Origin: Candidatus Multivorans sp.
GTDB lineage: Bacteria > Acidobacteriota > Thermoanaerobaculia > Multivoradales > Multivoraceae
DNA: 64,000 nt
Direction: 5' to 3'
Assembly (NCBI GenBank): GCA_965224025.1
Contig: OZ245033.1
Span: forward strand, 3,200,001 to 3,264,000
Positions within the stretch are counted from its first letter, which is position 1; each line of letters starts with the position of its first letter. The position numbers were made by a program, and so were the translations under genes. This document shows positions 57,755-60,135 of this stretch, one piece after another. The notes beneath the pieces are model-generated. The model made no database searches, had not been told where the DNA came from, and was given only the letters and a program-made list of their open reading frames with translations.

Positions 57755-58450
57755 GTGACGCGGCCTTCGCCACGGGCTGCCGGACTCTCCGCGAGTCAGG
57801 AACTCGGTCTGCTGCGAGACCTCGGTTTCGAGGACGCCTATCCGCCGCGGGCGGCGGAAGCCGTCCAGGAAGGCGCGGGAGACCGCTCCGAGCGTCTACG
57901 GACGGTGGCGGAAGAGGCTCGGGGCTGTACCGCGTGCCGGCTCTGCGAGCAGCGCAAGACGGTCGTGTTCGGTGACGGTCATGCTGACGCCGGCCTGATG
58001 TTCGTCGGCGAGGGTCCCGGCTACAACGAGGATCAACAGGGCCTGCCCTTCGTGGGGCGGGCGGGACAACTGCTGGACCGCATCATCGCGGCGATTGGCC
58101 TGAGCCGTCAGGAGGTCTACATCACGAACGTGGTCAAGTGCCGGCCGCCGAACAACCGCAATCCGCAGCCGGACGAAATCGCCGCCTGCCGTTCGTTCCT
58201 CGACCGGCAGATCGAACTCGTGGCCCCGGGTGTGATCGTCGCCCTCGGCGGAGTCGCGGCCCAACAGCTCCTGCAGACGAAGGACTCCGTGGGCCGCATG
58301 CGGGGCCGTTGGCACGACGTGCGGGGTGTACCGGTTCGGGTGACCTACCATCCGGCCTTCCTGCTAAGGGATCCGTCGTACAAGCGGGCCGCCTGGGAAG
58401 ACATGCAGCTCGTCCGCGATCGTCTGTTGGAGGCTGGCGGACATGGCTAG
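57755..58450 (+). CDS. Uracil-DNA glycosylase family 4
   Basis: CTACRL, GEGPG..ED, PFVG.AG, NVVKCRPP, YHPA. Confidence 0.92.
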   Translation: MTRPSPRAAGLSASQELGLLRDLGFEDAYPPRAAEAVQEGAGDRSERLRTVAEEARGCTACRLCEQRKTVVFGDGHADAGLMFVGEGPGYNEDQQGLPFVGRAGQLLDRIIAAIGLSRQEVYITNVVKCRPPNNRNPQPDEIAACRSFLDRQIELVAPGVIVALGGVAAQQLLQTKDSVGRMRGRWHDVRGVPVRVTYHPAFLLRDPSYKRAAWEDMQLVRDRLLEAGGHG

Positions 58451-58540
58451 GAGTGTCCGCAGCGTTGTCGCTGCGCTGTCGCGCAGGGAACAGGCAGCGA
58501 GTAGCCAACGTTACAGCGGCGTCGTGGGTTCATAGAGTTG

Positions 58541-58700
58541 GCCGCGCTGGGCAGCGAGGCCGCGCAGGCACTGGTGTGTTGGCGCCCGACTAGGAGTTTG
58601 GCCCGGACCGTGATCGGCGCTCTGACGCTGGCGGCGCGGCTTGTGTCGCGACCCCGTATGCAAGATTGAGCTTTTCGCCGCGGTCTCTGCCCAGCGCGAC
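58541..58700 (+). ncRNA. Candidate IS110 bridge RNA
   Basis: Closing stem gcgctgggcag/ctgcccagcgc; internal matches to left flank (ctaggagt), right flank (cggac) and right end (atgcaag). Confidence 0.6.
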
Positions 58701-58731
58701 GATTGGATTCCACATCTACGGGAGGCAGGGG

Positions 58732-60051
58732 ATGGCAAAGCGGAAGGCGGAGCGTCTGGAAGTCGTTCACCCGGATTGCGCCGGTGTGGACGTAGGCAAG
58801 CGCAAGCACTACGTGGCGGTGGCCCCGTCGCGTTTCGAGCGGCCGGTGCGCAATTTCTCGTCGTTCACGGAGGACCTCGAGGCGATGGCCTCGTGGCTTC
58901 AGGAGTGCGGCGTGCGTGAGGTGGCGCTGGAGTCGACGGGGGTGTACTGGATTCCGGTGTTCGAGGTGCTGGACCGGGCGGGGTTCGAGGTGCATCTGGT
59001 GAATCCTCGGGCGACCAAGCAGGTGAGTGGCCGCAAGAGTGACGTTCTGGACTGCCAGTGGATCCGGCAGTTGATGAGCTACGGGCTCCTGCGCGGTGCG
59101 TTTCGCGCGCCGGACGAGTTGTGTCCGCTGCGTTCGTACACGCGGCAGCGCGCCCAGTTGGTCCGCGACCGCAGCCGCGCGGTGCAGCACATCCAGAAGG
59201 CTCTGGTGCAGATGAACGTGCAGTTGGACAACGTGCTGAGCGACATCATGGGCAAGACCGGCCAGTTGATCGTGCGCGCGATCGTCGCCGGCGAGCGCGA
59301 CGGCGCGGCGCTGGCCCGTCACCGGGACGGTCGCTGCAAGGCTGGTCCGGCTGTGATCGCGGCGAGTTTGCAAGGCAACTGGCGAGACGAGCACCTGTTC
59401 GCTCTGGGCCAGGCGCTGGCCCGCTACGACATGCTGCAAGGCCAGATCGAGATGTGCGAGAAGCGCATCGACGCCGAGCTCGACGGTCTGGCCCAAGACG
59501 GCGTCGAGGACGCGCCGCCGCCCGGTTCGAAGGCGCGCGAGCGCGCCCTGCGGAAGCGGCTGCATCGCATGCTCGGCGTGGACCTGGTCGCCATTCCGAC
59601 GGTCGGCGTCGAAACCGCGCTGACCTTCGCCGCTGAGATCGGCCCGGACCTGTCCCGGTTTCCCTCGCAGGGCAACTTCTGCTCGTGGCTGTGTCTGGCT
59701 CCACCGACCAACATCAGCGGCGACAAACGGCTGAACGGCCCTCCCGTGAAGCAGACCAACCGGGTCGGCCAGGCGCTGCGCCAAGCCGCCACCACAGCCC
59801 GCAACAGCAAGACCGCCATCGGAGCCTCTCACCGCCGGCGTCTCCAGCACATGGAGAAGGCGAAGGCCATCAAGGCCACCGCTCATCAACTCGGCCGACT
59901 GATCTACGCCATGCTGACCCACGGCGAAGAGTACGTCGAGCGCGACCTCGCCGAAATGGAGGCCGTCCGACGCGAACGACAAATCAGAAACCTGCAGCGT
60001 CAGGCCCGCCGCCTGAATCTGGCTCTCGTGCCGACCGAACATGCCGCCTGA
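58732..60051 (+). CDS. IS110 family transposase/recombinase
   Basis: DEDD motifs GVDVGK, LESTGVYW, KSDVLD; C-terminal NISG; GGAGG RBS. Confidence 0.95.
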   Translation: MAKRKAERLEVVHPDCAGVDVGKRKHYVAVAPSRFERPVRNFSSFTEDLEAMASWLQECGVREVALESTGVYWIPVFEVLDRAGFEVHLVNPRATKQVSGRKSDVLDCQWIRQLMSYGLLRGAFRAPDELCPLRSYTRQRAQLVRDRSRAVQHIQKALVQMNVQLDNVLSDIMGKTGQLIVRAIVAGERDGAALARHRDGRCKAGPAVIAASLQGNWRDEHLFALGQALARYDMLQGQIEMCEKRIDAELDGLAQDGVEDAPPPGSKARERALRKRLHRMLGVDLVAIPTVGVETALTFAAEIGPDLSRFPSQGNFCSWLCLAPPTNISGDKRLNGPPVKQTNRVGQALRQAATTARNSKTAIGASHRRRLQHMEKAKAIKATAHQLGRLIYAMLTHGEEYVERDLAEMEAVRRERQIRNLQRQARRLNLALVPTEHAA

Positions 60052-60135
60052 ATCGCGCAACCTGCGCTGCCAACAAGGAACCCCTACCCGTTTGTTCCAT
60101 GCAAGTCCGCGCGGCAGGTTGCGGGTCTTGGCCCC

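Follow-up and report, generated by a model that had tools for sequence, protein, structure and literature searches.

The insertion sequence and its transposase

The window analysed here is a stretch of 64,000 nucleotides from Candidatus Multivorans sp. (contig OZ245033.1, positions 3,200,001 to 3,264,000 of the forward strand), and all positions below are those of the window unless another contig is named. Near its right-hand side, on the forward strand, lies an insertion sequence of 1,652 bp (58454–60105, counting the right-hand copy of the core), which comprises a non-coding left end of 278 bp, a transposase gene and a non-coding right end of 54 bp. It is very probably an IS110 element whose left end encodes a bridge RNA, in which segments matching both junctions of the element can be read and, among relatives, change together with those junctions.

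The gene (58732–60051, forward strand) was assigned from Pfam and NCBIfam matches and encodes a transposase/recombinase of 439 amino acids, in which an N-terminal DEDD RuvC-like domain (DEDD_Tnp_IS110, PF01548; 1.1e-25) is followed by a C-terminal Transposase_20 domain (PF02371; 2e-11). The protein scores 271 bits against the NCBIfam model NF033542, 'IS110 family RNA-guided transposase', for which the cut-off is 140. IS621 is a distant relative by protein (E 6e-9), and in a phmmer alignment to 8wt6_A (IS621), the second aligned stretch of which is weak (10 bits), the D of GVDVG, the E of LESTG, the two D residues of SDVLD and the S of ISGD stand opposite the catalytic residues, given for IS621 as D11, E60, D102, D105 and S241 (PMC11208158). 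The sequence is that of an intact member of the IS110 family. By length, its transposase fits the subgroup of 395–455 amino acids mentioned in PMC11187229, which, as stated there by Siddiquee et al., has not been studied in detail.

Boundaries, copies and empty sites

Fourteen copies of the element, 99–100% identical to each other, are present in the genome (5.14 Mb, 67.6% G+C). The span 58447–60105 is common to all of them and the sequence outside it diverges: the flanks 5′ of CTAGG are unrelated, and the flanks after the right-hand AG are alike without being identical, usually consisting of two variable bases and then TGCGC. The sole sequence common to both junctions, in 14/14 copies, is AG, which forms the left core copy at 58452–58453 and, at 60099–60105, follows the right end ATGCA, as delimited by comparison of copies and relatives. 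Insertion is site-specific, with every copy at CTAGG-AG, and the duplication is the AG core alone.

A preliminary description of this DNA had placed the junction strings ctaggagtgtcc at 58447–58458 and atgcaagtccgc at 60099–60110, and both occur there. It had taken the duplicated core to be AGT, of which the AG stands and the T does not, the base after the right-hand AG being T, C, A or G among the copies. It had also allowed that the true boundaries might lie elsewhere, since a 10-bp inverted repeat (60056–60065/60114–60123) spans the right junction. This repeat is present, and perfect, in the window copy only, its right arm lying in the flank and being missing from the other 13 copies; it is no boundary marker, and the ends remain where they had been drawn, being shared by 14 copies and agreeing with an empty site in a relative. 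A further short segment of the element's right end, 60061–60067, consists of the same seven bases as the ideal right half-site described below, without AG before them.

The expected empty site was found in this relative, in whose flanking genes identity is about 88%. Contigs of two public runs bridge 58451 to 60130/60134 without the element, and in them the first four letters of the window copy's right flank come immediately after the seven letters of the left junction. In a more distant organism the same genes are bridged with both the repeat and the element absent. Within the genome itself, a free site at position 929341 of contig 1 agrees with the predicted empty site of the window copy along 19 bases without a mismatch.

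The left target half, CTAGG (58447–58451, forward strand), is found at 14/14 left junctions, and the right target half (60106–60112, forward strand) is the first arm of a palindromic repeat resembling the repetitive extragenic palindromic (REP) sequences. The targets in this genome are such REP-like palindromic repeats, which often begin at a gene's stop codon. In the window, the left half-site takes in the TAG stop codon (58448–58450) of the uracil-DNA glycosylase gene (UDG Pfam match), which stays intact. A direct junction with coding sequence is also seen at many free sites elsewhere in the genome.

Taken by itself, the window would say little about guides. The left-junction 8-mer CTAGGAGT occurs twice in 64 kb, as it does at least twice in 18/100 shuffles, and the right-end 7-mer ATGCAAG also occurs twice, as it does at least twice in 79/100 shuffles. 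String matches in a single window are thus within chance, and the weight of evidence has to come from relatives and from the other copies.

A conserved structured RNA in the left end

One scan of genome contigs yielded 59 related loci (numbered with the prefix L), with transposases of 45–86% protein identity, mostly in metagenome-assembled Pseudomonadales-like genomes and several of them in multiple copies. The upstream and downstream regions of these loci were aligned, and the RNA alignment comprised 33 distinct regions after the exclusion, as truncated, interrupted or duplicate, of L022, L024, L027-35, L042, L044, L047, L048, L050, L053, L056, L059-61, L063, L067-69, L071 and L074. Structure was derived with RNAalifold from the 33-row alignment, with one helix added by eye.

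A conserved structured RNA is present in the long non-coding end according to the alignment, RNAalifold and pair counts alike. The putative bridge RNA covers about 160 nt (58541–58700, forward strand), this being the span of the outer helix, from which the transcript ends themselves may differ. Six helices were recognised: the outer helix P1 (58541–58551 with 58690–58700); P2 (58558–58561 with 58600–58603), which closes the target loop; P3 (58572–58578 with 58583–58588); P4 (58615–58619 with 58676–58680), which is stacked on P6 and closes the donor loop; P5 (58629–58640 with 58645–58656); and P6 (58605–58610 with 58681–58686), in which 81% of cells are paired and both sides change in 4/6 pairs. 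Each loop consists of a 5′ strand, a distal hairpin that starts with UGG and ends with CCCG, and a 3′ strand. Over the 41 pairs of the six helices, 90.7% of cells in the 33 sequences are paired, compared with 36–42% when the partners are slid, and changes on both sides occur in 25/41 pairs; 0/500 shuffles reach any of the five measures used. The alignment was not fitted to the structure, and the sequences are related, so these figures are not to be read as probabilities.

A few bases 5′ of the outer helix stands a −10-like motif, CATAGAG (58531–58537), with TATAAA or GATGTAAG at this place in relatives, a hint of a promoter inside the element as opposed to one made across the junction of a circularised element. 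A simple promoter scan passed over this motif. A terminator scan of 58400–58800 returned none. The sole sub-threshold Rfam match, gntR-DTE on the minus strand (E 0.77), was taken as chance.

Guides that follow the left target half and the right end

The 3′ strand of the target loop carries CTAGGAG (58590–58596, forward strand), which equals the left target half plus the core, and the 3′ strand of the donor loop carries ATGCAAG (58658–58664, forward strand), which equals the last five bases of the element plus the core. Across the 33 RNAs, the left-target segment matches the element's own left junction exactly in 27 cases, with one mismatch in five and not at all in one. For the left-donor segment, agreement with the right end is complete in 24 cases, and two more differ at one base; the other seven had no right end in the range searched, and two of these were found to be exact by a looser scan. 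The matching words are diverse, with 15 distinct words in the left-target columns and 10 in the left-donor columns, and AG closes both segments in 33/33 aligned RNAs.

In the 24 elements with both junctions, the mean match is 6.83/7 for the left-target and 6.92/7 for the left-donor segment, compared with about 1.7 at other columns, and column-by-position covariation gives clean diagonals (z 4.6–6.7). The base directly 3′ of the left-target segment (58597, forward strand) agrees with the base that opens the left end in 92% of the same elements (z 4.9; 0/300 permutations), as a handshake-like base would. The preliminary description had picked out CTAGGAGT (58590–58597), CGGAC (58604–58608) and ATGCAAG (58658–58664), all of which are found at these positions, and had suggested that homologs be compared for covariation of guides with flanks. 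Both 3′-strand guides do covary with their junctions, which upholds CTAGGAGT as a target guide over 58590–58596 and ATGCAAG as a copy of the right end. Its central proposal, that of an IS110 element with readable guide copies of its target and donor junctions and a target of CTAGG-AG-TCCG, is likewise supported.

Several results weigh against a bridge RNA of this kind. A single-sequence fold of the region is no better than shuffles (z +1.0), no Rfam family is reached at gathering score, a simple sigma-70 scan of 58400–58800 found no promoter, and a search of sequencing-run records listed no RNA run. Among the relatives, the left-target guides of L036, L054, L062, L065 and L079 each carry one mismatch, and the guide of L057 has no match to its own left flank. 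The relatives are moreover linked by phylogeny, so that the permutation counts given here overstate independence.

Recognition of the right target half

The 5′ strand of the target loop carries GCGCAGG (58562–58568, forward strand), which is complementary to the seven bases that follow the core in the right flank and is probably the right-target guide, to judge from how it pairs in copies and relatives. In the genome, at least 5/7 Watson-Crick pairs are formed in 11/14 copies. In relatives the segment was anchored on an invariant CA before P3, and with this anchoring cognate pairing averages 3.19/7 compared with 2.29 in permutations (1/5000 as high) over 25 elements with 19 distinct words, or 2.52 compared with 1.62 when five positions only are counted (0/5000).

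The strongest alternative is that the RNA reads the left target half only, GCGCAGG being no guide and the likeness of the right flanks being a by-product of their membership of one REP-like family. This is unlikely. In 9/19 guide groups no copy exceeds 3/7 pairs, several L026-type copies stand beside unrelated right flanks, and right flanks do not match for insertions beside mini-elements (described below) or into guide-coding DNA; many of the weakly pairing elements adjoin left-end-like repeats or mini-elements. Two bases past the right-target guide stands an A, where a U would be required to pair with the core, and a column-wise scan for this guide gave no clean diagonal, a signal appearing only with CA anchoring. 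Against reading of the left half alone, cognate pairing exceeds permuted pairing in four settings (0–6/5000) and collapses to 1.3–1.7 once the register is slid by 1 or 2. Close relatives also change in step on guide and flank, L037 and L039 differing at one position on both sides, with further agreement in L023, L026 and L058. The free sites point the same way: CTAGGAG occurs 136 times in the genome, as 14 left junctions, 14 internal guides and 108 free sites, and 30/108 of the free sites are followed by at least 5/7 bases of the right half expected to suit the RNA best, compared with a background of 3.3%, although REP structure alone could also yield such an excess. Two other right-guide candidates, 58617–58623 and 58680–58688, were dropped, their bases lying in or beside helices.

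A second alternative would make the structured left end a leader that controls transposase expression, with the 7-mers as non-guiding relics of past insertions, such as a captured target. The RNA does end about 30 nt before the start codon, as a leader might. Relics would not, however, follow both junctions in 24 elements, with 15 and 10 words at fixed positions in the loops, and the protein belongs to a family in which RNA guidance has been demonstrated (NF033542; PMC11208160, as described there). This explanation is accordingly very improbable.

Least probable of all is an IS621-type layout in which the left guide is followed within a few bases by CGGAC as the right guide: GTCCG, its reverse complement, does occur at the right junction of the window copy and at 58455–58459, but the right flanks differ in the other 13 copies, the same bases are kept in relatives with other left ends and flanks, and they pair with 58681–58686 with compensatory changes, for example in L054, L070, L072 and L078. 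Contrary to the preliminary description, which had linked CGGAC to the right junction, comparative evidence identifies this segment, held in the 5′ strand of P6, as one strand of a covarying structural helix and no guide.

The inner left end

The donor side differs from the target side in that no guide for the inner left end was detected. Left-end positions 1–11 were compared, in either sense, with every RNA column (58541–58704) and gave none, a result that counts against the bridge-RNA reading, and neither the 5′ nor the 3′ strand of the donor loop gave a consistent or significant match to the inner left end. The 5′ strand of the donor loop (58620–58628, forward strand) keeps its sequence as the bases of the left end change, and the search for a segment that pairs with it gave none; its same-sense likeness to a left-end motif about 25 nt inside the element, suggestive to the eye, was set aside as a candidate, being reached by 38/300 permutations.

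Just inside the left end lies a terminal palindrome with 6-bp arms and a 4-nt loop (58459–58474), and relatives and mini-elements have a palindrome of other sequence at the same place. A left subterminal inverted repeat, GGAACA (58487–58492; left-end positions 34–40), pairs with a right subterminal repeat, TGTTCC (60093–60098). Such subterminal inverted repeats of 5–7 bp are found in 24/24 related elements at fixed positions, and they covary, 0/500 permutations reaching the observed mean. The inner left end may be recognised by the hairpin and the inverted repeat and not by a guide.

Mini-elements and insertions into guide-coding DNA

The family's right-end motif occurs 41 times in the genome, in the 14 full elements, in at least 15 mini-elements of 52–60 bp, in a few longer ones and in fragments. 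The mini-elements lie outside the window on contig 1 (for example 527078–527139, 1070790–1070856 and the 4516173 region), and each combines a left-end-like palindrome, the inverted repeat and the family's right end at a CTAGG-AG, CCAGG-AG or ATGCA-AG junction. They are probably derivatives that are non-autonomous and depend on mobilisation in trans. At the start of the left end they do not have the same bases as the full element, in keeping with a donor left end whose individual bases are not read, and recognition by hairpin and inverted repeat, if true, would explain how mini-elements of 52–60 bp with other left ends are mobilised to the same sites.

Guide-coding DNA also serves as a target. 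In three independent places the right end of another element abuts the base after a guide's AG: in the right flank of L032, in the RNA region of L074, where an 86-nt insert splits the target guide, and at L017 (contig 1, 4134200–4134340). This is an independent sign that the DNA encoding a guide is itself read as a target.

Other rearrangements were observed around these loci. A second family member is split, L016 consisting of a left end and RNA without the gene (contig 1, about 909026–909277) and L015 of a gene without the RNA (2129243–2130580). The L016 target guide equals the family's right end plus the core, and the L015 transposase, which is 85% identical, lies 1.2 Mb away in opposite orientation. 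Both break points carry inverted copies of the 10-base terminus of some other element, and the arrangement suggests an insertion followed by an inversion. Tandem arrangements occur as well: two RNA copies stand 1881 nt apart in L045, another left end follows in L022, and in L025, L041 and L054 a mini-element of 89–126 nt comes next, after which the REP-like flank resumes.

Proposed mechanism and its implications

The observations on boundaries, helices, guides and repeats can be joined into a mechanism in which this active-looking IS110 element would use a bridge RNA from its own left end. The RNA, if transcribed over about 58541–58700 and bound by the recombinase, would form an outer helix around two arms, each built of a stem and a loop with its 5′ strand, distal hairpin and 3′ strand. 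In the target arm, the 3′-strand guide CTAGGAG would read the left half-site and core, the base after it would match the element's first left-end base in a handshake-like manner, and the 5′ strand GCGCAGG would pair with the first seven bases of the right flank. In the donor arm, the 3′ strand ATGCAAG would repeat, in the same sense, the five bases that end the element and the core after them. With its DEDD RuvC-like domain and serine-bearing Tnp domain, the recombinase may then join the circular form of the element to REP-like CTAGG-AG-NNTGCGC sites by strand exchange at AG.

Programmable DNA insertion is an application for which bridge recombinases are under development, and mechanistic work has been carried out nearly entirely on IS621 and a few relatives. 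The present family offers a naturally reprogrammed series in which 15 target words and 10 donor words are set in one conserved scaffold, and to what is available it adds a core that reads AG on the gene strand, a mirror-image order of guides and possibly a guide-free donor end. Moreover, the full element, its non-autonomous miniatures, some 30 free sites and cases of insertion into guide-coding DNA all occur in one genome, in which the spread of such elements and their mutual restraint could be studied on a small, natural scale.

Comparison with known systems

The rules established for IS621 (PMC11208160, Durrant et al. 2024; PMC11208158, Hiraizumi et al. 2024, as described in their text) account for much of this organisation. 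As in IS621, a non-coding RNA upstream of a DEDD/Tnp recombinase has one target loop and one donor loop; each loop has one guide in the sense of the top strand, with, probably, a complementary guide in the target loop at least; the guides include a 2-nt core; a base beside the target guide matches the donor as a handshake; and the targets are of REP type. Unlike IS621, the present element has a distantly related protein of 439 rather than about 326 amino acids, a gene-strand core of AG rather than CT, an outer helix that closes the whole RNA, subterminal inverted repeats of 5–7 bp, and a donor loop in which no second guide was found. The main difference lies in the position of the guides. The same-sense guides, which would pair with the bottom strand, stand 3′ of the distal hairpins in both loops here and on the 5′ strand of the loops in IS621, so that the IS621-type layout is not encountered, and the caution of the preliminary description that the loop architecture might differ from IS621 was justified. 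As deduced from these positions, the guide order is the reverse of that in IS621 and ISEc21 and the same as that reported for IS1111 seekRNAs.

In the seekRNAs of the IS1111 elements ISEc11, ISPa11, ISKpn4 and ISPst6, as described in the text of PMC11187229, a segment complementary to the top strand likewise stands 5′ of one complementary to the bottom strand. IS1111 elements also have subterminal inverted repeats, and REP targets are reported there for ISPa11. They differ in having the non-coding region and RNA downstream of the transposase rather than upstream and transposases of 330–350 amino acids rather than 439 (PMC11187229), and in repeats of 7–17 bp (according to PMC11208160) compared with 5–7 bp here. 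ISEc21, an element of IS110 type treated in the same account (PMC11187229), likewise has its non-coding region before the transposase gene and matches both target strands over short stretches, but its top-strand match is 3′ of the bottom-strand match, as in IS621 and opposite to the order found here.

A further parallel, by description, is provided by ISPpu10 of Pseudomonas putida, which is described (bioRxiv 10.64898/2026.03.19.712850) as an IS110-family element that homes to REP sequences and has a stem-loop beside its site. Its split donor, consisting of ends without the gene, is mobilised in trans according to that account, which parallels the mini-elements of the present genome. ISPpu10 was mapped there by IS621 logic with a CT core.

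The combination of an upstream RNA with this guide order was not found described in the literature searched, figures and supplements aside. The mechanism is a known one and the layout is, within that literature, a variant not found described, although it may have been published all the same; should figures or supplements already show it, the element is simply a well-documented new member. It is conceivable, if rather doubtful, that the element belongs with its relatives (45–86% identical in protein, from metagenome-assembled genomes, Pseudomonadales-like and other) to a class of bridge RNA whose architecture is undescribed, which would combine an upstream RNA as in IS110, guide polarity and subterminal inverted repeats as in IS1111, an AG core, an inner left end recognised by hairpin and repeat in place of a programmable guide, and guide-coding DNA as a built-in target through which copies disrupt each other.

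Viewed from the complementary strand, the element has CT as its core, the 5′ strand corresponds to the left guide, and the 3′ strand corresponds to the right guide with its handshake base. This reading gives the guide roles of IS621, so that the logic of the ribonucleoprotein would be that of IS621, with the RNA-plus-gene cassette inverted relative to the core, and the chemistry is presumably the same as in IS621.

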